Assembly (NCBI GenBank): GCA_017654855.1
Contig: CM030332.1
Span: 4,774,001 to 4,838,000 of the forward strand
Source: Podospora anserina
Lineage: Eukaryota
Reading direction: 5' to 3'
Length of the DNA stretch: 64,000 nt
In this document: in pieces, positions 31,019-45,174 of the stretch
Position numbering within the stretch: the stretch's first letter is position 1
Layout: each line of letters opens with the position of its first letter
Position numbers and translations under genes: made by a program
Notes under the pieces: model-generated
The model's database searches: none
Told to the model about the DNA's origin: nothing
What the model saw: only the letters and a program-made list of their open reading frames with translations

Positions 31019-34000
31019 ATGGACTCGTTTGGGGAGGATTCGCAGCCGACTCAAGGTTTGTTTGTTTTGATCTGCCGAAGCCCCTTTTCTCCTGCGTGTT
31101 TCTTAGTTCTAATCTGATTGACCCCTTTCTGCGCAGCGACGCAAAACGTCGTGGATCCGAGACGGCTGGGACAGCAGAACTCGGGCTTCTCAGATACAGA
31201 CATCGCCGACATAATATGTCTTCTTGTTCCGCAGTCGGATGCTGCACGCCGAGAAATCAGAAGAATCAGACTCCGAACACCAGAGCACACGGTTGGGAGG
31301 GATGAGGCGCTCAACTTGGATGTGGAAGAGGATGGGGAGGATGTAATTGGGGGCCAGGGCTTTCCGGGACATGGTGTAGGGGAGTATCACATTGCGCTGA
31401 GGTTTTCCACCGAGATTAAGAGTGCTGTAAATGGCTTCACCTTTGGACGAAACGAAAGTCGTTGCGACATTGTTTTCGAAGACGATCCGATGCGACGGCT
31501 GAGCAACACCCACTTCCGCATCTACCTCAACGACCACGGGGTTTTGATGATTGAGGACATGTCGACAAACGGCACCGTTGTTGATGAGCAGCTCTTACGA
31601 CGAAAGGGCGAGCCACCGCTCGATGTGAAGAGGACACTAAGGAGCGGTTCGAATATTAAGATTCTGATGCATGAGGAGGCAAGAGACCTCAAGTTCAGGG
31701 TCTGGATACCAATCCGGCAGGGCTACTCAAATGAAGCCTACAAGCAAAACTTACGAACATACATTTCAAATCGAGCAGCACTCACGGTAGATGTGAACGC
31801 AACCATCGTGCCCGGCCCTGGTGGGCGTGTAAGCTCATCCCCCTCCTTTTGGAAATCCAACCGTGGCCACGTGAGTAACTTGACATGTAGGTTGACATAT
31901 TCAAGCCCGCGGCACCCAGAGCAGCTCCTGCGCAAAGGCAAACGCCCAACAACCCGGTAGCTGTTCGTCGGGCACAGCCAGGTCCTTCAGATCAACAAGA
32001 TACCGATGATATCTTTGATGGTCTTCCAAAGGCGTGGGGTGGGTCGCAAAAGTATAACCGTGTGGGTGAGGTGGGCAGAGGCGCCTTCGCTACCGTCTAC
32101 AAGGTGACCTCGAGGTTCAGCGGTGAACCTTATGCGGCCAAAGAACTCGACAAGCGGAAGTTCATGAAGAACGGCGTCTTGGACCAGAAGGTTGAGAACG
32201 AAATGCGCATCATGCAAAAAGTCAAACATGTCAGCCTCCGCCATTCTTGAGTTCTGTTTTGCACAATTACTGACACCGCAACAGCCAAACATTGTAGAAT
32301 ACGTCGAGCATCTCGACTGGGATAACCGGCTGTTGATCATTATTATGGAATATGTCGGCAAAGGAGATCTCGGGAGGATGATCTCGGAGTATGGGCCTCT
32401 CACCGAGGACACCACGAGGACCATGGCAACCCAGCTGCTGGATGCCTTGGATTATCTTCACAAGATGAACATCACCCACCGTGATGTGAAGCCGGACAAC
32501 ATTCTAGTGAGCTCACATGATCCATTTGTGGTCAAGCTCACGGATTTTGGGCTTTCCAAGATGATTGATCACGACCAGACGTTTCTCAGGACCTTTTGTG
32601 GTACCCTCCTGTATTGCGCCCCTGAAGTATACTCGGAATATGCCGAATACGATAGCAGAGGCAGACGGCATCCCCGAAATCGACGTCTCCACCCACAAAC
32701 TGGTCAGAGATACGATCACGCGGTTGACATTTGGTCCTTGGGAGGCGTTCTTTTCTACACAATGACGAAATCACCCCCCTTTCCGGCTCAAAGCGGAGCT
32801 AGTCACTCGGCGCTCCTTCATCAGATCATGACCAAACCCCTCAACATAGCACCCCTTCAACAAGCCCAAATCTCAGAAGAGGGTATCAAGTTCATCCAGG
32901 GCATGCTCGACCGTAAACCAGAGAACCGAGCAACGATTGAAGCGCTCCAGCAGCACCCCTGGATTCAGCCGCCTCCGCCACCGCAGGTCGATGAAGTATC
33001 CGACCAGGAGCTCAGCTTCAATGCTTCACAGCTCAGCATCCAGGATCAAGACTTGCAGATGCCGTTTGAGGACCATCTGATTCCAGCCAGCGACGATGAA
33101 GATCTCCCTGATCAGGAGCCAGTTCCAACCGGCGGATACGAGTCCGAGAAGGAGAACTACACATTTGGAGCCGGTAACCAGCCACAGCCTCAACCTCAAC
33201 GTCTCTTTGGAGAAGTAAATCCGTCGGCTATGGGGAGTCAAGGCGCGGTGGCGGCCCATCGTCTGAATCTGCCGGTGTCCAAAGACAGCTTTGCGTCAAG
33301 CGCATCGACGGAGATTTTAGGATCCGACAATGAAATCAAGGACAGCTTTGAGTCTGACCAACACTCCACACCGCGGCAGAAGAAGCAGTTCTCGCAAATT
33401 CCCTCTGTCGGTCTGGAGGAAGGGTCCTTCTCGCTCAGCCAGAGCAGATCCACGGAGGACCTCAACACCAAGACCTTTGATGTGGCATCACAGAGCTTGG
33501 GGGGCGCCGAGTCCATCCTGGAGAATCTTAATATGAAGTCACGCGTCGGCTCCCTCCTTGCCTCTCGTGGAAGTGAGGTGAACTCCAGCAAACGCAAGCA
33601 GGATTCATCCAGCGAAGATGAGGCTCAGCGAGGGCCTGTATCCGATGGGCGCGGTCTGAAGAGGTTTCGATCAGACCCCACAACGGTTCAAAAGCAACAA
33701 CAACAGCAGCAGCAGCAGCAGCAAGAAGTCGCCATTCGCACGCTCGATAGGAAGGACTTCGATTTGATGTCGCAAATCCCATCGATTCCTAAGCAGTCGG
33801 TGCAGATCGACATTCCAGTCCACAAGGCTACATACTGGCTGGCTAATGACAGGAGCACCTGGCATCTGACGTACCCCGAGATGACACAGCTACAGTTCGA
33901 CGCCTTCAAAACGGCAGCCAAAGCCAGAGGAGAAGACTTTGCTCCAGGCAAAACCCCTCTTTGGGACCTGGCAATGAAGTACTTCCCACCCACCAATCGG

Positions 34001-34990
34001 GAGCGGCCAGGCAAGATCAGAAGGACCTTTGAAGATTCCGGAGACCACACGATGCCGTCTACTGCAATCGAATCCCAGGCGAGTCAGCATGTCGAGATCC
34101 CAGACACCCAGGACGCGTATACCACCATGGCTATGCACTCAGAGCGGATGAAGCCAGTGATTGCGTGTTTGAAGTCAACACCCAGTTCAGTGGTTCACTT
34201 CATTCAGGTCCTGGTAACCGAGTGCATGATCTCCTGGGGCCGTTCAGTCGACAACACTCGCTCGTACGAGCCCAAATCGGAGAGCAGAGTCCCAAAATAC
34301 GCATTCAAGCTCCTCCTGTGGAAGAACAACTTTGATGCGACCATCAACAGGAACTGGCGGCCTTGGAACAAGCGCTACGAGCCTGACGAGGAGGAGTTCA
34401 TGTTTTACATTTGCACCAAGGCGACCAACGGCATCTGGATCAACGGCGAGAAATTGCGCTCTCACCTGAACGAGAACAAGAAAGCCGACGGCCCTTACAA
34501 GTACTGGGCTCCCCTCTACGACGGCGACCGCGTCTCCGTCTGGCAGACCATCGACGGCAATTCCAGAACCGAGCTCACCTTTCGTTGCGTCTGGGGAGGC
34601 AGCGCGAAACCTCGTCCCGGCTACGGTCCTCAAGCTATCCCAACCATGGTCGACACGGACACTGCCCGCCAACTGGATCACCTCTGCGACAAGATTGAGC
34701 GCAAGATGCGCAGTCTGAACGAGCACGACCTCTGTATGGAGGAGGCGGAGTATGACATGAACGAACGCCACAAGCACATTGACCGGGAGAGGGAAAAGTC
34801 GAAGCAGTTTGAGAAGCTGAGGAGGCAGGCGGACAGGGGTGGGAGGAGGCCGAGCCCGATGCCGGGGATCACGTATGGGAATGCGGATTCCACGCCGGCG
34901 ATGTGGACTAGTCAGTTCAGAGGGGGGGTGCCTGTTTTTAGGAGGCCGAGTCCGACTGCTTCGGATTTGTTGAGGGCTGCGAGGTATTGA
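31019..34990 (+). CDS. Rad53/Chk2(Cds1)-family checkpoint kinase: N-terminal SQ/TQ motifs, FHA domain, Ser/Thr kinase domain, C-terminal FHA-like domain (4 exons)
   Basis: Exon 1 is MDSFGEDSQPTQ (31019-31055). FHA motifs FTFGRN...LSNTHFRI...DMSTNGT. Kinase motifs GRGAFATVYK, YAAKE, HRDVKPDN, DFGLSK, FCGTLLYCAPE. Second FHA-like region SWGRS...TKATNGIWING. Confidence 0.9.
33695..33724 (+). repeat. CAA/CAG tract encoding poly-Gln (10 Q) in the kinase
   Basis: caacaacaacagcagcagcagcagcagcaa, in frame. Confidence 0.9.
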
Positions 34991-36084
34991 TTGTGGTTTT
35001 GGAGAGAAGAAAAAAACATGATACCCGGTGGAGGTGTTTTTTTTTTTTTTGGTACGATTGTTGGAAGGTTTGTTGGAACTGTTTGGTGTGAGAGAAGGGA
35101 GGGGTGGGTTTTATGCATATTATTATACAGCACACAGTCGTTACGGTATAGCTTTGTTGGAAAGGGGTGTTTTATATCTGTTATAGGGTTGGATGAATGT
35201 TTGGGCGCAAAATTCATACATATCTCGTATTGTATTGTCATCTAGTTTTTTGGGGAGGGGGTTGTTAGTGGATGGATGGCTTGATGGATGTGGTTGTTTC
35301 TGGGTGTTTGTTTTGTTGACTGGTACTAGAGATCTATATTTTTATGTTGGAAGGATATGATGACGAGCTTGGTTTGTGTGGTTTGGGGAAGTGGTGATAG
35401 TGTCGAGATGGTTCGATAAGGAGGCTGGACTGGAAAGAGATGTTTCAAAACATGAAAATACAATATATATATCAGACTAGGTGCTATCTAGATGGTTTCA
35501 GTCATGTGTTTTTTTTTCCTGAGGGATTTTCTTGTGCCAGGTTGTCTTGGCTTGATGGGATGAATACATTTGGCACTCTTAGGGGGTGGGGTGTACGGTT
35601 GTTCCTTGCAATCATCCAGGCACATCTTAACATGAGACTTGCCTGTTTGTTACTTTGATTCAACCCTTTTATTTGGCATTGTGCATCAATCAAGGTATCA
35701 CACTCGCTCTTCCCCCTCTTCCTGAGGTCTTCTTTTCGGAAATACTTGCACCGGAATCTACTTGTGTTAAAGAGGGATCGATCATCAGATACAGCAAGCA
35801 AAATCACCCCAGCCCGTGGAACACACATGCTGTCTTCATCATCCTTTTGGACACTGTTCTTCAAAACGGCATTCTTCCACAATCTTCTATATGCCCCAGA
35901 TGTTACAAATTTCATCCTGTTCACGTGACCATGTTTGATGCCTGATTTCGGATTTCTCAGAACAATCTTAGTCAATGCTATAGAGAGAGATATCAGGGCC
36001 TGGTGTTTCTCTCATGTTTTTTTTTTTGCGTACCTACCATTACCATTGTGTCATATTGGGGTCTTCCTCCGCAAGAGTGACTGA

Positions 36085-36945
36085 GAGGTGATATGCACTT
36101 GCACAAGACTTTGGTGTCAACACAGAAGTGCTTTATAAGACCTTTTTGATCAAGATAACAGGACTTGTGTATGACTTTCTTGATAGGATGAAGGACTTTC
36201 ATAGGATCATTGAAGAAGATAACAGTGCTTGTTATGACTTTTCGAAGAAGATAGTGTGCCTCATGGTGGTTCTTGTCACGATTGGTGTGTTATATCAAAC
36301 AGCCCAAATTGAAGGGGGAAAAGAGAGTTGTATTTCTTTAGCTATGATAAGGTCTCAAACTTCCAATTTAAACCACCCAAAGGTGAGTCCATTACACCTT
36401 GCCACAGCAATGCCTCCTTTCCTTGCGACGAGCACCGCCGAATCGCCATAGTGATTACCGTAAGTGTACCAGGTGAGCGGAGGCGTAACGAGACGTGGTG
36501 ATAATCGTATGTAAACTACTATCGGCGATAAGGTGGTATAGAAATCGAAGGTGTGATGCCAAAAGCGTGTATGGTACAATGTGTGTGGTGATGACGGTGT
36601 TGAACTGTCAAATCGATGCGCAGCGAGAAAAAAAACCCTCCAAACTTCCAAAATAAGCTGGCAGCCCTCGTGCAAGGAATTTTCCGCAAAGACAGTAATG
36701 CTTTACATGTAATCTTTTTACAAGAGTAGCAGCGGTCAACAAATGAATTTTTCGTCAAGGTAACAGCGCATGCAAATGACTGTTATGGGAAAATTGTAGC
36801 GCTCGCGGTTGAGCTTTTCTGTCAAGATAGAACCGCTTGTAAATGAAATTTGGTTACCACAGCAGCGCTTGCACAAGAGTTGTATGAAAATAGCACCGCT
36901 TGCACAAGATATCAAAATCAAGACAGCAGCCCTTACCAGTGATAT
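36085..36945. repeat. Degenerate tandem repeat A, about 33-bp unit, in two blocks (about 36085-36280, 6 units; about 36655-36945, 9 units)
   Basis: Approximate consensus TCAAGATAGCAGCGCTTGCA(A/C)A(T/A)GA(A/C)TTTT. Block 2 unit starts: 36661, 36695, 36729, 36763, 36796, 36830, 36862, 36893, 36926. Block 1 CTT anchors: 36098, 36131, 36164, 36196, 36228, about 36260. Confidence 0.75.
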
Positions 36946-37645
36946 CTCTGATTAAAGCTTGGATTGGTCAAAATAAAGTTGGGATGGGTTCTTTAAATAT
37001 CATGGCTTGCATAATGTAGGGTAGAATTGTTCTGGTTGTGTCCTGCTACTACGACACATCTGAAATCCAGGACGGAGTCCCAGAGCGTCTGCATTCTGGT
37101 TCCTCCAGAGGATCAAGAATTTGACTTTGTCTCATTTTGACTGCCATCATGTTAGATTTGATCGGTTCGAGCCAATACTAAACTCACCATCAAGCGGATG
37201 AATGGTTCTTTGAGAGGCTCTCCTGTTAACTCCCTTGTTTGACTCTTTCTAAGGACCTCTGTCCCAATCGTAGCAGATGAGGTACTTGGGTTCTCATCGC
37301 AATAGTCAATACGCAGGTCAAACACCCTATAACGCAAAGCATGCATTTTGCAGTGAACTTTACACACCCAACACGATATACTGTACAGCTATACCCGCAC
37401 TTCTAATAACTGTGACTGTCCCAAACCCTTCCTAGACAACTTTTAACGCTGCCCATCTTTAACAATACACCTATCGATACAACTCGCCCCTTTTTGCTGA
37501 CCCTGAACGCCTTCGAACTGATATCATACACTAATTCTACACCCAAACTTTCCTTATCCCACTCGTTCCTCATATCGTAACACCCAGCCCATCCATCCTG
37601 CATTCCCTGTCCTCTTTCCGGCTCTAGAAAGGCACAAAACGCCTT

Positions 37646-40600
37646 TTACTCATCATATCTTTCAATCTTCCACGCCAGATCACTATCCACCTCAACCACC
37701 CTGTCTCCATCCTCCTCAAACAACGCATCCAGCTCACTCATACTCCTAACAACGCCACCTTTTGGCAGCTCTCTTCTCCGAGTCGGTGAGCCAAAACTGC
37801 CGAACGCCTGGCCTTCATACTGCTTCATTCTCTCGTAGGATTCGGCAAGCTTGGCGACATCCGGAATAAACATCTCTTCTTCCGACTCCTCCCCTCCAGC
37901 ATATTGCTGGTAATGCAGCAAGGGCTCTGACCGCTTCCGTTTAGGGGTACTGTTTACCTTGCCTTCACGGTTGCCGGGGGAACGAAAAGGGGTAGCGGAG
38001 CCACGATCACCCGGTTCAGAGGTAGGTATCTGAGTAGCGGTAGATTCGGGGGCAGCAACGGGGAAAGATCTGCGGAGTGGTGATCGTGTAAAAGGGGCGT
38101 GGGGGGTTGTCCGGAGTGACAAAACTGCGGCTCGGGCGCGGATGATAGCTCGGTGTCGACGAGAACGGGGCTCCCTTACTGGTGAGCTGGAGGGGGGACT
38201 GGGGGTTTTGAACCCTAGGTCGCGATTCACCTTGGATTCTGCCCCGAGGTTAGGGGCGAAGTAGAGGCCGGAGAGTCCCCTCGTAGTGGGAGAGGTCGAT
38301 GGGCTGGAGGAGGATGAAGGGGCGGAGCTCTTGGGATTGGGTCCAGGGGTTTGTTTGTTACCTAACGATATAGGGGCCGAGGGGGGGGATAATTCGTCCT
38401 TTAGGTTGACGCGGAAACGGGAGGGGTTGTGGCTTGACTGCCGCTGTCTTTTAGGAGGACTAGGCAAGATATTTTTACCTGTGACAACCTCAGGGGGGGT
38501 GTTGACTTGAGAGGAGGACTTCAAACTTCCGACGGAACCACGATTGCTTTGCGGAGGGCTGCGGTAGGCCTCTAAAGTCCGCAGACTGGCAGAAGGTAGC
38601 CTCCTTGACGATGTTGCGGAGGAGGAGGAGCCAAGAGTCATGGGCTCCAGGCTGGTTTTCGACAATGACCTCTCGTGTTGTTTACTTTTTGAGGAATCCG
38701 CAACCAAGGAATGTCTCTCGACCCCAGATTCGAGATTCGCGATTTGGTGTTCTGATCTCGATCGATGAAGGGCGGCAAAATGCAACTTAGAAACCCCTTT
38801 GGGCTTCCTTCCAGACGTGAGGGGCAACCTCTCTCGGCCATCCATTCCTTTTTCTTGGGTTCCGGCGGGGAAGTGGCGGTCTCCGTGGCGATTGGAGTCG
38901 AGGTTATACCCCTCGACTGCATCGAAGTCCCTTTCCTTAACCCCAAGCTGTTTGGGGATCACATCGGCAAGCTTATCAAGAGACGAGGTCGAAACACCCA
39001 GAGATATAGCCCCCGCAGAGCGATCCGTGGATATCAACCCCCTTCTCTCCCCCATCTCTGCCGGCAACTCTTCCATCTTGAAGCCTTCCTGGGCATCTTC
39101 CCGCAGACTTTCCTGCCGCTGAATCTTCCGGTCAAGACTCTCGAGAATCACACTCTCTCGACCAGTCTTCCTGGTCCTCCTCTTCGCCTCCCTCATGTCA
39201 ACGCACTGTTTACAAAACAGTTGGAGAGGGGTAAGGGGTGCCCCTGACTTGACCAAAACAAGGTGCATTTTTGATCGAGCAACACCACATCCATGACACC
39301 ATTCGTAGGGAAATTTCCCCTCTGCCCCCTATGTTAGCCATACAAATTAGCATAACAAACATAACATGACTATAAAATTGCTCAGACGAAATGTTGAGCG
39401 TTTCTGAACGCTGCTGACTTCATGTTTGGATGACAAAGTAAGCGTTTTCAAACGCTTAACTTGACACTCCCAAACGCTATGGCAATATTGTTGGGATGAA
39501 ATGTCAAGCGCCCCCGAGTGTTTCGGTGACTTGTTCGGATGACAAACTTGGTGTTTTCAAACACTAGAAAAAAGTGTTTGGATGAAATACGATCGCCATT
39601 AAGCGCAGGTGTAGCAATATTCAGATAAGATACCAAGCATCTCAAACCGCCAAGTCAAAAATCCAAATACTGTTTGGATGAAGTGGTGAGTGCCCCTAAG
39701 CGCTGTTGTAGGAGAGCTTGGATGAGATATGAAGCATTTTAGAACGCTAAGTCAAAAAACACAAAGTGTGTTTGGACGAAATGTTGAGCGCCACTGAGCG
39801 CGGATGTGGTGGTGTTTCGATGATATATCAAGTGTCTAAAAATGCCAAGTTCAAAAGCCGAATACTATCCGGATGGAATATCAAGCGGTCCAAAACCATA
39901 GAAGATTGTTTGGACGAGAGGTAAAAGATTACTTAGATGAGAGTAGGAAATTGTTGGGATGAGAAGCAAGGGTCTCCAAATAACAAGTGAAGAAAATCTA
40001 TATGTTTTTTGGATGATATATCAGCCTCTCTGAACGCTCAAAAAGCAACGTTTGAATATCATCTCAAGCGTTTAGAAACGCCAAGAAGAGAAGTCCAAAC
40101 ATTGTTGAGATGAGATTTGAAGTGCCTCAAAACGCCAAGTTAAATAAACCCAACACTCGTCGGATGATGAGTTGAGCATATTCGAACACCACTTGATGGC
40201 TTGTTCAGATGATATATCAAGCGCGTTCAAGTGTTGTTATAAAGGTGGTGGGATGATGGATGGGGTGTTGAGAAGTGTAACCTGTGAACAAGGACTGCTC
40301 AAAGCACTGTTTGAGTGTACTCCAATGACATATTAAGGATCGTAAAACACCGGTTGAAAACAAACCAAGGGCGTCAAAGTGCTCTCGTATGAGTGTTGGA
40401 ATGACCGCGGAAGAGTTTTGGGAAGGCAGATTCGAGCGAGATTAACCTTCTGTTGAGGAGTGTTCGCTGTTGAGGAGTGTTCGGAGGAAAGTTCCGTGAT
40501 TGGGATGGGGTAATCGTCACTTGACTGCCCAACTGACAGCTTGGGGGCCTGTCAAAGAAGAAGAAGGGGTATGGGCATGTCTTGCCGAAGACCGCTCACT

Positions 40601-40912
40601 CCACTTGGGATGAACAATGACCGTGTCGTAGGGGGTATGTTTGCCAAGGGGTTCTCCGGAAGTGAAGAAAAAGAACAGGAAACAGGATAGGGAGACTTAT
40701 AACATACCGGCTGTTGACGCCACAACTCGTACCTCTCACGGCACGAGACACACAAGCTGCTCCTAGCGAACTCGTCACCAGCGTGGAGACGCTGGTACGA
40801 CTCCTCGCGGAGTTGCCCGCACAGGAAGCAGCTGTGTGCCCCGGCCGGAGAGGCAGTGAGAGCGGCGGAGGCGCTGGTGTACTGGTTGGCTTCCAGTCGG
40901 GCTCTGAATGAG
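37646..40912 (-). CDS. Uncharacterised protein with two CxxC-(x22-25)-CxxC putative Zn-binding motifs and a long Ser/Pro/Arg-rich tail; exons 40707-40912 and 37646-39328; 5' exons (about 41030-41270) unresolved
   Basis: Exon 40707-40912 (CTAAC..TAG acceptor, GTATGT donor) reads ...HSCFLCGQLREESYQRLHAGDEFARSSLCVSCRERYELWRQQP. It joins in phase 0 to the acceptor GCTAACATAG at 39329, giving GAEGKFPYEWCHGCGVARSKMHLVLVKSGAPLTPLQLFCKQC..., which is contiguous with the 540-aa ORF. Confidence 0.7.
39378..40260. repeat. Intronic degenerate repeat array B: about 20 units of TGTTTGGATGA-nnTnTCAAGCG-nn-AACGC, spaced mostly 43-45 or 53-54 bp
   Basis: Core (G/A)GA(T/C)GA-like anchors at 39384, 39428, 39494, 39537, 39580, 39623, 39676, 39720, 39774, 39818, 39871, 39912, 39935, 39957, 40011, about 40054, 40108, 40162, 40207 and 40251. 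Confidence 0.85.
40450..40483. repeat. Perfect 17-bp direct duplication (CTGTTGAGGAGTGTTCG) x2
   Basis: Read directly from the sequence. Confidence 0.95.
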
Positions 40913-41790
40913 CTAGGTAGAAAGTGGAAGTTAGTTACGTATATCTATAACATCAGGACAAAAATTGAATAAAGTGTTTTGCATCGAGGGATGTGTTCCA
41001 GAAACACGGGGATGTTGATTCAGTGCCTCGCACATGGCTAGCAGATAGGGGCATCGAAGACTGAGGGTTAGTGCCTGGTAGTGTTGTATGAAATCGAAAA
41101 TGCCGACCAAAGAATTCTCAGGCCCAAACCTCGCTCTGGTCTCTCTTGAAAATCATTGTATCGAGGATCTGGTGCCGTGTCGTTGATAATGATGACGCTG
41201 CTGTTGGAATAGAGAGGTCGAAATGCCGTCGAAGACTTCAACAATGTGGCCAACTCGGAGTCGCTCATTCGAGGTCGAAGAAAGAGTGAAAACGCCAGTC
41301 AGAATATACTTGCAGGTTTGAATCCATGTCGCTGGCAAGGGCGCGGGCGACGACGACGACGATGGCAACGGCTTGCAAACGCTGGGCTAGGTGACGCGGC
41401 GAAGAAAGTCGTGGCGGTCGTGGTCGAAAAAGTGAAGGTGGGAAAGCAGCAGAAAACCAACTGAGCTGCTTTAGTATTGTCGAAATCGTACGGCAGAAAG
41501 AGCAAAGCTGGGACGACGACCAGACCATTCTCCCCAAATCACCCGTTCATTGACAAAGGACTGTGAAATATCAAGACAAGACCACCCAACACTGTACAGA
41601 TTTCACCAGCAACTTCCAAGAACACCCAAAATGAACATTGAATATGCATTTGCTTAACCCCCACGCGTTTTGGTATACAGTGCCCACACCAGGCATTCTT
41701 CTTTTCCCAACCCATATATCACTGTGGTAGATAGAGGAAAAGAAATTACAAAAAAATCTAACATACTCCTTGAGGAAAGCTGTTATTCCC

Positions 41791-44312
41791 TTAATCCACA
41801 CGCAGGACCCGAGACCCCCTCTTCTTGGTGGCCTTCTTCTTCTTGAGCCCCTTCTCGAACGCTGTCGCCGAGATATGGTCACGGCCAACGTTGTCAAGGT
41901 CCTTGACCTTGTAGATTCTGATGATCCAGTTCTCGCTGGTAAAGGCCTCCTCCAGGGTGCTGAGGGAAGGACCAACCTCGGGCAGACGGGCTTGGCGCAT
42001 GCGATCGACAGCCTGTCCTGGAGGGAACAGGTTGTTGAAGTTGTAGTAGGACATCTTGTACCTATGAGACTGTTAACAAGTCGTATTGTGACATGGAAAA
42101 GATGACTGAAACTTACATCAAGCTGTTCTTCATGGTCTCGGTAGCCTCGCCGTCGACACGATACTCGCCTCTTGGGGTGAAGAAGGCGCGCTCGCTGACC
42201 TCATCAGGCCAGATACCCTCAGCGATACGAACCATCCACAAGAACTTGTTGATATCGTCACCAGAATAGCCCAGAAGACCGCCAAAGACCACGAGAACAT
42301 AGTCGACCTCGTGCTGGCGCATGATGGGGTAGCTGACCTCCTCGCGCGAGCTCATGGCTTTACCGACAGTGGCAATGTGTGTGTTGTTCCACGTGTTGTT
42401 GTCGACAAGAGTTGGGCGGTCAGCCATGCCACCAATTTGGTAACCATAATCCCACCACGACATAATCTTGGCGTCCTCCTTTGTGTTTTGGCGAAGCCAC
42501 TGGTAGGCCTCACGGTAATCGTCAATAATGTGCTGGCTTCCGTCAGGCATCCTGCTTGCCAGGACAACGGAGGGAGAGGAGTATGCGTTGGACGTGACCC
42601 AGGTGCAGTGCATGACGAAAATGAGGAGGTAGATGGCCATAGCGCCCACCATCAAGATCTTGGACCACAGGCCATAAATGCCAACAACGGGCTTGTTAGT
42701 GGACTTAAGACCAGACTTCGAGCCCTTCTTCTCAGCGGCCTCGGCGGCTTGCTGGTCCTCCTCGGTAGGAGTCTTTGCGACAAGGTAGTTGTTGAGGATG
42801 GTCGAGATGGCGATGGCACCAGCAACACAGACCACAGGGGTCAATGTAAGCATCAGGCGGACCATGACACCAGCGAAGTAGCTGCCAAAAACAGCGTACA
42901 CAATGATGAACACATGCTCATCAGCAAGCTCCTGGAAACAGAGGTAGACACCAACAGGGAAGACGAAAATAAGCAGGTTGAGGTCAAAGAAGAAAGCTGG
43001 CCAGGCGGTGGGCTGATGTTCAGAGACGGAGGCAATGATGGGAATGTGGATCTTAGCATATCCGGTATCCCAAAGTGAGTAGAAACGTCCGCTCCACGGG
43101 GCGATAATGCCGGCGCTGGTGGCAATCACCAGAGCCGCAAGAGACAGAACGAAGATACCGCCAGCAAAGATCCAGAGGAATGTCTGGAACTGACGGCTGG
43201 GAATGGCTGACCGGACATAGTCCAAAAAAGCGAGGAGCTGGAGGAAGCCGAAAATACCAAGGGCAGGCATGTGCTCGCTGGTCTTGACAGGCAAGAAACC
43301 AACAAAGGGAATCTGCATGCTGGCCAGTGTGCCCAGGGCATACCAGGTAGTGTACGAAACGTATAGCCTGGTGCTGTAGCGGCCCATGAGGATAAGGACG
43401 AAGGCGTGAAGGGGAAGAAGGCAGGTGATGAAGGCATAACCACCCCAGGAGGCGACCATGTAGCCGTAAAACAGGGCGCAGAAAGCACCCCACAGCATGG
43501 AACCCTGCTTCAAAGCCTTGATCCAGAGATAGAAGGTGAAGACGAGCAGGAAAATCGCAATGGCTTCGTTGTCGTAGCTGCCAGCAACTGATCGAGAGAT
43601 GTAGCCGGGGGCGATGCCCATAAACAGAGCAGCCAGGAGGCCGGCCGAGTTGTATGTTGTCATTTCATTGGTGAGGAGATAGGCGGCAATAGCCGTAAGG
43701 CCAGAGAAAGCCGGCGCGAGAAGAACGCAGACGTTGCGAATATCGACGGGAATCGTGAAGGCGCGGAGGGCGTGCCAGATAGCACCGCTGGTTACCATGA
43801 GGCCAGGGTAGAGGGTACCACCCGTGACACGGCCCAGAGGATGCCATGTTCGGTCATCGAACCAGTCCCAGAAGTTGTAGAAGCCATTTGCGACGAGATA
43901 TTTTGTGGCGCGGAAGTTGAACCAAGGGTCGACTGGAAGGGTGTTAGTATATCTTGATATATTGGGCAGAGGACGCGATGGGGCCGCAGCGCAACGCATA
44001 TGGGAGACTGACATTCGTGGATAATACTTTCGAAACCTAGGAAACAAGCAGCATGTTAGCAATGCAATTGACGAACTATGGGATTCACAGGACCCAGAGA
44101 AGCACAGAAACAGCCCCAGTGAAGCAGCCGCGAGCTTGCTGTCCAGCCATGATAGCTTCCTCCATGCCCAGGGAACACCTACGAATGACGGAAAACAGGC
44201 GGCTTGCGATTGAGGCGCCGGCGATGAGGGCGAGGATAATGACCCGCAGCACGCTGCGAGTACTTTTCCCCTTGCCCACATCGGCAAGAATTTCAAGTGT
44301 TTCGGCCGACAT
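41791..44312 (-). CDS. STT3: Oligosaccharyltransferase catalytic subunit Stt3 (4 exons, including a micro-exon of about 24 nt, FESIIHE)
   Basis: RLFSVIR/FESIIHE/FDPWFNFRAT, SVAGSYDNE, IIASVSEH, catalytic WWDYG, DNNTWN and GDDINKFLWMVRI. Confidence 0.97.
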
Positions 44313-45174
44313 GGTGGCCTGCGGTTGGCGTTGTGCTTCCTCTCGTCGGTGGGAGTTGAGGAGAGGCTGCAACAGGTTCAAATTACCCAGAGCATCTCTG
44401 TCGAGTTGGAGAGGACAGTTTGGAGCTTTGCTGCATCATGGTCCAGGGACAGTCTTGGCACTCGTTATTGGACCGAGCCAGGGGTACACAAGCCCCACCG
44501 TTCCCGCCGTTCTGCCATATTCTGCCAGGGCGGTCAGAGAAAGTGATGCCGCACTTGGTCTCAGCAACACTTGGCATCAACATTGAATTTCCCTGCCAGC
44601 AGCTGCCATGGATATCATAGTCACTGATAATGGGGGGGTAATTTGGAGAAAGCACACCGTAAACGTCGGCATGGGCTAGTATGCACTTGAACAGCCCGTT
44701 ATGGCCGTTGCCTGACCCCAGATCGACGTAGGAAACCGAATTAGAGGCATGTCACGCTCACAACGGACAAGGGCACAAGAGCACGATAAGACAAACAGTG
44801 GTGGGCGTCCAGACAGCGGGTATCATATATCTGGCAACGTCTATGGGCTTCCCTGGACAGTTTCCTTAGCCCCGGCCGAATCAATCGGTCCCTACCAAGA
44901 CGCCGCCATAGATGCGCAAGCATCGACAGGCGCAACTAGCATTCCATGTGGAATCACCTCCGAGAGACCTCCAATGTGGGTGTTTAGTGCAGAGCTTTGA
45001 TTCGGTAGCAGTAAAGCTACCTAGCCGCATCGAAAAATCATTGACCTCGTAAACACCCCAAAACCCTAAAAGCAGATGACCCTGGGATGATGCAGTGTGC
45101 TGAGTGAAAGACCTTTTTTTAACCGCGCCGCTGGTGCCCTAGTACAACCGTCCCATTATCCTCGAAACGCCAAT

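Follow-up and report, generated by a model that had tools for sequence, protein, structure and literature searches.

A 64,000-nt stretch of the Podospora anserina genome (assembly GCA_017654855.1, contig CM030332.1, positions 4,774,001 to 4,838,000 of the forward strand), referred to here as the window and numbered from its first letter, carries on its reverse strand a gene with two pairs of CxxC motifs, and the two motif-bearing segments of this gene are separated by an intron of 1379 nt that is largely filled by a degenerate tandem array. We suggest that this array is probably the fossil of a minisatellite with higher-order organisation, which inflates an otherwise ordinary spliced intron, and that its short dyads were inherited from a founder unit. 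The splicing of the intron and the tandem structure of the array are observed directly, while its mode of origin, its age and its lack of function are what we infer from the pattern of decay among the units and from a series of negative searches.

The intron and its splicing

Splicing was assessed over 37400-41800 in assembled Logan contigs from four runs (X15, X17, X18 and X20), representing four studies. These runs are taken as RNA by guess only, no RNA run being on record for this stretch, and the comparison was confined to such putative-RNA contigs. All four contain a single joint, from 39327 to 40707, which skips 1379 nt and has the ends CT..AC when the cut is moved by one letter (+1); the shorter side of the joint is 58 letters long in X20 and 28 in each of the other three runs. 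Because the splice signals are canonical, the removal of a 1379-nt GT..AG intron, joining the two Cys-motif segments in frame, is much the likeliest reading of this joint. The features concerned are as follows.

39329..40707, reverse strand: spliced GT..AG intron, 1379 nt (joint in four of four runs, and sequence)
40702..40707, reverse strand: 5' splice site (donor) GTATGT (sequence; position agrees with the joint)
39329..39352, reverse strand: 3' end of the intron, with the branch-like motifs CTAAT and CTAAC followed by TAG; acceptor AG at 39330-39329 (sequence)

The CTAAC motif ends 5 nt, and the CTAAT motif about 19 nt, before the acceptor AG, and from their match to the fungal branch-point consensus CTRAY both would serve as branch points. 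The exon junction (40708/39328) preserves the frame (...ELWRQQP/GAEGKFPYEWCHGC..., that is QQP/GAEG). With donor, acceptor, branch-like motif and exon junction all present, the intron is of the spliceosomal GT-AG type. An unusually long intron between two Cys-motif exons had been proposed in the initial annotation of this DNA, which named spliced reads across the array as a check; the joint with its GT..AG ends in every run bears the proposal out, and spliced contigs are present in all four. The span first given, 39329-40706 (1378 nt), was right on its 3' side and lacked a single base on the 5' side. The mean length of a P. anserina intron is given as 80 bp (PMC9801653), so that the present one is about 17 times as long.

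The interior of the intron is also covered by contigs, beside the spliced form, in the same four runs. Cover is patchy in X18 and X20, and in X15 one contig of 1437 nt comprises the entire intron with 29 letters of either exon, which is below the 31-letter bar for bridging and proves nothing. For X15 and X17 the depth of the intron contig is 8.7, compared with 26-28 for the joint-bearing contigs, figures that cannot quantify retention. The intron-interior contigs may represent pre-mRNA, intron retention or contaminating DNA.

Anatomy of the tandem array

Within the intron the following repeat features were delimited.

39379..40289, forward strand: degenerate tandem array of 20 monomers, each with core TGTTTGGATGA, spacer, dyad AGCGY-N6-RCGCT and tail (core scan, unit cutting, nhmmer)
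39575..39832, forward strand: best-kept higher-order stretch, A+B dimer with a period of 97/98 bp (Tandem Repeats Finder score 223-225, 72-76% matches)
40290..40490, forward strand: more decayed unit-like remnants on the 5' side of the intron (repeat families D1 and D16; weak nhmmer matches at 40325-40389)

The 20 units lie head to tail over about 0.9 kb (39379-40289), in keeping with the count of about 20 degenerate units over some 900 nt in the initial annotation. They fall into two types, A units of 41-45 bp and B units of 53-54 bp with a AAGTCAAAAA..AAATAC tail, and the A+B dimer gives rise to the higher-order period of 97/98 bp. A partial alternation of 43-45 and 53-54 bp types with a period of about 98 bp had been described earlier; types and period stand, with a slightly wider range for the shorter type. 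The alternation holds from 39379 to 39866, and is followed by two units that are truncated and by an arrangement of lower regularity. Counting decayed pieces up to about 40490, approximately 1.1 kb of the 1.38-kb intron is repeat-derived. With head-to-tail units in the range of 10-100 bp and two monomer types, the array has the organisation of a minisatellite with a higher-order tandem period.

Several searches agree on the extent of the array. When up to two mismatches were allowed, the core had 49 matches in the 64 kb compared with 22.3 +/- 4.8 in shuffled sequence (none of 100 shuffles reached 49), and 17 of these 49 fall in 39423-40488, every one on the forward strand. Tandem Repeats Finder reported periods of 97/98 at 39575-39832 with 2.7 copies, which is the sole array in the window scoring at least 80. 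A hidden Markov model of the unit, run with nhmmer against the whole window, gave matches confined to 39379-40393; the 18 matches at E <= 0.002 all lie within the array, from whose own units the model was built, and no second copy of the unit was found elsewhere in the window. The array is poor in G+C (0.39-0.43; mean of the window, 0.53). Among the listed runs, 19 contain at least half of the 31-mers sampled from 38900-41300, word presence not being a measure of copy number.

Coding capacity was not found in the array: unit lengths are not multiples of three, and none of the seven open reading frames (ORFs) in the intron has a Pfam match at E < 0.06. GATA sites in the spacers, inspected by eye, were not clearly in excess of what would be expected. 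In the non-array part of the intron, at 40450-40483, there is an exact 17-bp tandem duplication (Tandem Repeats Finder period 17, 2.0 copies, 100% matches) whose sequence is similar to a degenerate core; no other duplication in the intron looks recent.

Palindromes and pairing

Five dyads, listed without strand, were located in the array.

39397..39412: palindrome AGCGTT-tctg-AACGCT (sequence; repeat family D8)
39431..39466: longest dyad of the array, arms of 17 nt, 82% complementary and 2 nt apart, which includes AAGCGTTT-tc-AAACGCTT (inverted repeat I6)
39551..39564: palindrome GTGTTT-tc-AAACAC (sequence)
40068..40081: palindrome GCGTTT-ag-AAACGC (sequence and repeat search)
39661..39679: second kind of dyad, ATCCAAA-tactg-TTTGGAT (inverted pairs I8 and I12, and sequence)

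The four palindromes named in the initial annotation were all found where it had placed them. The second kind of dyad had not been noted there; here the B-unit tail repeats part of the following core in inverted orientation, an arrangement that is clear at one B-to-A junction and weaker at the others.

The consensus unit is itself palindromic, with 69% of cells paired in register compared with 21-46% in slid registers. Pairing above the expectation from column composition was, however, not found (69.4% versus 67.9 +/- 1.6, with 126 of 500 shuffles as high), and the covariation score of the aligned units was no better than that of column shuffles (0.280 versus 0.255, a value reached by 110 of 500). 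Pairs in the dyad with changes on both sides number 2, against a shuffled mean of 3.0, and RNAalifold on the aligned units keeps four pairs with a consensus fold of -0.87 kcal/mol. As the pairing equals its column-shuffled value, it comes from the inherited consensus and is not maintained unit by unit.

A search of 38500-41500 for Rfam families returned none, the four matches having E values of 1.5-8.8 and 12-22 bits where the gathering scores are 36-145; only one of these sub-threshold matches, 26 nt long, lies within the array. A small nucleolar RNA or any other Rfam family was accordingly rejected, no match coming near its gathering score (best E 1.5). Pairing of array units with the start of the downstream exon, which had seemed suggestive in the repeat search, was likewise rejected as being at chance level, the best duplex of -39.7 kcal/mol comparing with a shuffled mean of -41.5 kcal/mol and 31 of 40 shuffles being as good or better.

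Conservation and decay of the units

When all units are pooled, the mismatch to the consensus is 0.17 in the core, 0.27-0.28 in the dyad arms and 0.41-0.50 in spacer, loop and tail. The figure for the core is biased, as the core served as the anchor for cutting the units, and many of the pooled columns that seem variable are differences between types A and B. Within the B type decay is even, with mismatches of 0.17-0.25 in every segment, while the loops and tails of A units are very variable (0.44-0.50). The earlier observation that core and palindrome are better conserved than the linkers is thus upheld for the pooled units, the arms included, and fails within the B units. That such conservation would suggest a function, as was then proposed, found no positive support: the pairing is that of the column composition, Rfam gave no match, and the B units decay uniformly.

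The units are strongly diverged from one another. Their mean pairwise identity is 0.53, the best pair reaches 0.77 (Jukes-Cantor distance 0.27), the 98-bp blocks are 0.60-0.73 alike, and decay is greater towards one edge of the array. These values suggest that none of the 20 array units stems from a recent duplication and that homogenisation would have stopped long ago. Repeat-induced point mutation (RIP), for which the usual thresholds are TpA/ApT above 0.89 and (CpA+TpG)/(ApC+GpT) below 1.03, left no signature in the array, where the two indices are 0.61 and 1.32 compared with 0.62 and 1.26 for the window. RIP was therefore rejected as the source of the divergence, the indices being window averages and transversions being common (163 transitions and 119 transversions relative to the consensus).

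The segment 39997-39932 is present in the three very closely related sister species P. pseudopauciseta, P. pseudoanserina and P. pseudocomata, and at least that part of the array therefore predates their split; absence from orthologous loci, which the initial annotation had named as evidence against its proposal, is not what these three species show. A metagenome scan with a DNA pattern of three cores returned 94 loci, none of them above chance (best nhmmer E = 0.03) and none matched by blastn.

The host gene and its start codon

The two exons that flank the intron are the following.

37646..39328, reverse strand: downstream exon with an open frame of 560 codons; annotated Met at 39268-39266, giving a 540-amino-acid product; second CxxC pair CHGC...CKQC (ORFs, homologues; contigs in four of four runs)
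40708..41460, reverse strand: upstream transcribed exon; CxxC frame CFLC...CVSC open over 40708-40944, without an ATG (X17 contig 41460-40707, then joined to 39327)

In the spliced frame the cysteines are arranged as C-x2-C-x23-C-x2-C, then 21 residues, then C-x2-C-x27-C-x2-C. The annotated start codon at 39268 is only 60 nt downstream of the intron and falls after the CHGC motif, leaving CKQC without its partner, and all five named orthologues start at this Met or its equivalent, after the fifth and sixth Cys. The stretch from the intron to the annotated start contains three ATGs, all out of frame. The host gene is the orthologue of the QC76x_113450 genes: the best named relatives of the 37646-39328 frame are P. 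bellae-mahoneyi QC761_113450 (71%) and a protein of Apiosordaria backusii (38%), and its cluster at 90% identity contains the proteins of P. comata, P. pseudocomata, P. pseudoanserina and P. pseudopauciseta. The P. bellae-mahoneyi orthologue, compared with 37649-39328, has 481 amino acids and an internal segment resembling a translation of the same DNA in a different frame, a sign that its gene model may be frameshifted or mis-spliced rather than truly diverged. Nothing was found in the literature under the locus name Pa_1_13450, a name guessed from the QC76x_113450 tags.

Whether the gene begins in the upstream or the downstream exon bears on the nature of the intron. In favour of translation, a stretch of 65 residues in the upstream CxxC exon shows only 1-2 differences in three sister species and retains every Cys. 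That the frame stays open through the exon junction was rejected as proof of coding and counts as weak evidence only, since the probability of 99 codons without a stop is about 0.04 at the stop frequency of the window and another leader frame is open for 75 codons. An upstream intron that would supply an ATG to the CxxC frame was also rejected, none of 424 in-frame GT..AG combinations having a good donor, and no joint upstream of the CxxC exon is present in any of the four runs, the X17 contig running unspliced from 41460 to 40708. The upstream CxxC exon may be translated, in which case the intron interrupts the coding region, or the intron may lie in the 5' leader; the open junction frame and the paired CxxC motifs are what may speak for a coding-region intron. 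Introns in the leader are reported for 923 P. anserina genes (PMC9801653). Upstream ORFs are present on the reverse strand of the leader over 41327-41068, one of 20 codons from 41327 and one of 65 codons from 41268, with a stop/start overlap ATGA at about 41268, and further short leader ORFs start at 41156, 41054 and 41035.

The family of the protein was approached through several databases. Stc1-domain proteins carry a LIM-like tandem zinc finger, in which four CxxC pairs (8 Cys) build two fingers within a single polypeptide. The UniRef name 'Stc1 domain-containing protein' on two of three sister-species models is the only link to Stc1, and it was not reproduced with Pfam on the halves: an hmmscan search with each half, and with the 90-amino-acid sister-species model described below, gave no Stc1 match at E <= 10. 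A PDB sequence search with each half gave 0 matches at E <= 10, and in the ESM Atlas the clusters nearest to the 90-amino-acid model consist of small zinc-ribbon-like proteins that are unnamed or unrelated and share no Pfam family. Among the 598 pattern matches of a metagenome scan with the protein alignment there was no relative, and no longer homologues with the upstream CxxC peptide were found, which is weak evidence.

Neighbouring genes and gene models

In P. pseudopauciseta, P. pseudoanserina and P. pseudocomata the locus carries an annotated model of 90 amino acids, composed of 'MNG', the upstream CxxC exon and a last exon of 22 codons. These models map to 40708-40902 and 39932-39997 on the reverse strand, which places the last exon inside the array. 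The contigs instead connect the CxxC exon with the long ORF downstream, and the 90-amino-acid models look like prediction artefacts. The 'MNG' first exon would fall upstream of a loose contig end in a run of T (T9) at 41528, which is found in run X20 and looks like the poly(A) site of the upstream neighbour, the STT3 oligosaccharyltransferase gene (42116-44377, reverse strand; Pfam E = 2.8e-126). This loose end is only about 70-150 nt from the start of the host-gene contigs; in X15 and X18 one contig spans both STT3 and the host gene, and X17 has no contig cover over 41516-41662. Downstream of the host gene, 35100-37500 is a second low-G+C stretch (0.41-0.44) that adjoins a protein-kinase gene (32168-34987, forward strand), and no repeat scoring at least 80 in Tandem Repeats Finder and no copy of the array unit was found in it.

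Origin of the array

The explanation that we favour, and consider probable, is that of a fossil higher-order minisatellite. A founding motif of about 44 bp, in which the short dyad was already present, would have been duplicated, and the copies would then have diverged to give the A and B types. Their 98-bp dimer could subsequently have been amplified to about 10 dimers via slippage or unequal exchange, until amplification and homogenisation ceased long ago, after which the copies would have drifted by point substitution and small indels, not by RIP. On this account the array would be transcribed within the pre-mRNA and then removed with the intron, whose splice signals are not part of the array. 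Inheritance from the founder, together with an effect of how the units were recognised, and not selection, would mostly account for the palindromes and the seemingly conserved core. Absence of function is what the negative tests suggest.

Six observations weigh against this explanation. Within types, the pooled mismatches are lower in the dyad arms than in the non-core remainder (0.22 versus 0.34; permutation p = 0.008), a contrast driven mostly by the highly variable tails of the A units. The consensus dyads of A and B differ by one compensated pair, C-G in 5 units and T-A in 9; this difference separates the two types and is therefore a single event, and the earlier remark that both arms of the palindrome near 39551 change together, while correct for what is seen there, comes down to one unit plus this one inherited difference between the types. 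On the forward strand, G-U cells outnumber A-C cells by 13 to 5, which is mildly odd given few independent events. The array folds below shuffled sequence on both strands, with z values of -5.7 on the pre-mRNA strand and -4.9 on the other (20 shuffles each); as both strands fold alike, dyads at the DNA level suffice, and nothing in these values points to a strand-specific RNA. In the three sister species 20-22 of the 22 codons of the array segment 39997-39932 are identical, although relatives so close say little either way. Finally, an intron of 1.4 kb is far above the species mean of 80 bp, and a neutral insert of such age might be expected to have been deleted.

The position-dependent conservation of the pooled units, together with a consensus unit that is a dyad in register and about 20 sites in phase, could also reflect a cis-regulatory DNA element. 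Here the array would offer multivalent dyad sites (AGCGY-N6-RCGCT and/or TCCAAA..TTTGGA) to a dimeric DNA-binding protein and serve inside the intron as an enhancer or silencer, or alternatively as a promoter for a proximal start that gives the 540-amino-acid product from 39268, and the closeness of the annotated start to the intron would fit the latter. That the binding protein might be the zinc-finger-like product of the host gene itself, as the initial annotation conceived, is a speculative suggestion, the more so as the first CxxC exon may or may not be translated. We regard such an element as unlikely: a usable dyad is present in only about half of the units (the outer pair, positions 19-34, in 9 of 18 and the inner pair, 24-29, in 7 of 18), core and dyad are not spared in B units, and no contig end hinting at an internal start is listed for the four runs, where the intron-spanning contig of X15, with its 29 letters per exon, proves nothing.

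In some DNA transposons the subterminal regions combine short dyads with direct repeats. The same combination in the array, and its standing out as an island of low G+C, would be compatible with a non-autonomous mobile element (a miniature inverted-repeat transposable element, or a hAT, Mutator or Helitron-like element) that had inserted in a short intron and of which the array would be the internal or subterminal block of repeats; further copies would then be expected elsewhere in the genome. In the sequences searched, the marks of such an element are not seen: the 64 kb contain no second copy of the unit, no bracketing terminal inverted repeats are among the 25 inverted pairs shown (the sole spanning pair, I4, has one arm in an exon), the ORFs of the intron include nothing transposase-like and have no Pfam match, and the 94 metagenome pattern loci are all at chance level. 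A match to a transposon repeat, which the initial annotation had listed among the findings that would speak against it, was not found in the sequences searched, and we consider a mobile-element origin decidedly unlikely.

A third alternative places the action in the pre-mRNA, where motifs or hairpins of the array would slow or switch the removal of the intron, or would be a source of small RNAs. The outcome would be a ratio between a message with both finger halves and an unspliced message giving only the form that starts at the downstream Met. Contigs from the intron interior beside the spliced form in every run, and the folding of the pre-mRNA strand below shuffles, are consistent with this, and an intronic minisatellite of Caenorhabditis elegans is described as over-represented near regions of alternative splicing (PMC4039745). 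The intron cover could, however, be pre-mRNA or DNA in runs that are RNA by guess, at depths that cannot quantify retention; the opposite strand folds about equally, the stems are weak (four predicted pairs, -0.87 kcal/mol), covariation does not go beyond inheritance, no Rfam family matches, and exon-intron complementarity is at chance level. An RNA-level role therefore appears very unlikely.

Least probable of all, and highly improbable in our estimate, is a selected multivalent cis element, in DNA or pre-mRNA, that gates an intron splitting an Stc1-like tandem zinc-finger domain, a reading for which the evidence amounts to position-dependent conservation among the pooled units, the presence of dyads, and contigs that cover the intron alongside the spliced form. 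If it were true, the gated intron would be a switch between the full two-finger protein and an N-terminally truncated form from the downstream Met. The Stc1 family of Schizosaccharomyces pombe is described as coupling repeat-derived RNAs to chromatin silencing (PMC2875855), and if in addition the host belonged to this family, the repeat might feed back on its own host gene.

Comparison with known repeats

The fossil minisatellite that we favour is of a known kind. Giraud et al. reportedly described in 1998 a minisatellite, MSB1, with a 37-bp unit in an ATP-synthase intron of Botrytis cinerea. Both are head-to-tail non-coding repeats with units of tens of bp in a spliced intron of a filamentous ascomycete, and for both slippage is presumed and a function is not known. 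Unlike MSB1, the Podospora array has far more diverged units (mean identity 0.53) and appears dead instead of actively mutating; its higher-order period is that of a dimer, and it lies in an intron about 17 times the species mean. The statement in the initial annotation that no description of such an element was known is therefore too strong, minisatellites in introns being familiar.

Higher-order repeats are well known from satellite DNA, for instance in the dimers of alpha-satellite. As in these dimers, two diverged monomers alternate in the Podospora array, the true period is that of the dimer (97/98 bp) and one edge is more decayed; in contrast to alpha-satellite, the array is tiny (about 1 kb), is confined to a single locus within the 64 kb, is euchromatic, sits in a transcribed and spliced intron, and has no sign of recent homogenisation.

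For a role in RNA the nearest precedent is CeRep25B of C. elegans, which is likewise an intronic minisatellite and whose motifs are presented as candidate splicing regulators (PMC4039745). CeRep25B is, however, described there as a dispersed animal family of many loci that was identified statistically (PMC4039745), whereas the Podospora array is a single locus with, at most, possible intron retention. Should Met 39268 be the true start, the intron would share its leader position with the 5' leader introns described for P. anserina, from which it differs in its repeat content and in its length of 1379 nt compared with a mean of 80 bp (PMC9801653).

Implications

The value of these observations lies mostly in annotation. 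At least five named Podospora species have the host transcription unit annotated as separate pieces: one piece is an ORF of 462-540 amino acids that starts inside the second zinc-finger motif, and the other, in three species, is a separate 90-amino-acid 'gene'. In several Podospora genomes the locus thus has gene models that are split and probably wrong, and they need revision because transcript contigs join both parts across the 1379-nt intron.

Beyond annotation, the locus provides a clean example of a tandem repeat that lengthens one intron about 17-fold over the species mean in a compact fungal genome, with splicing kept. If the array proved to be constrained in more distant relatives, it would offer a tractable case of repeat-based control of splicing or transcription in a genetic model fungus.

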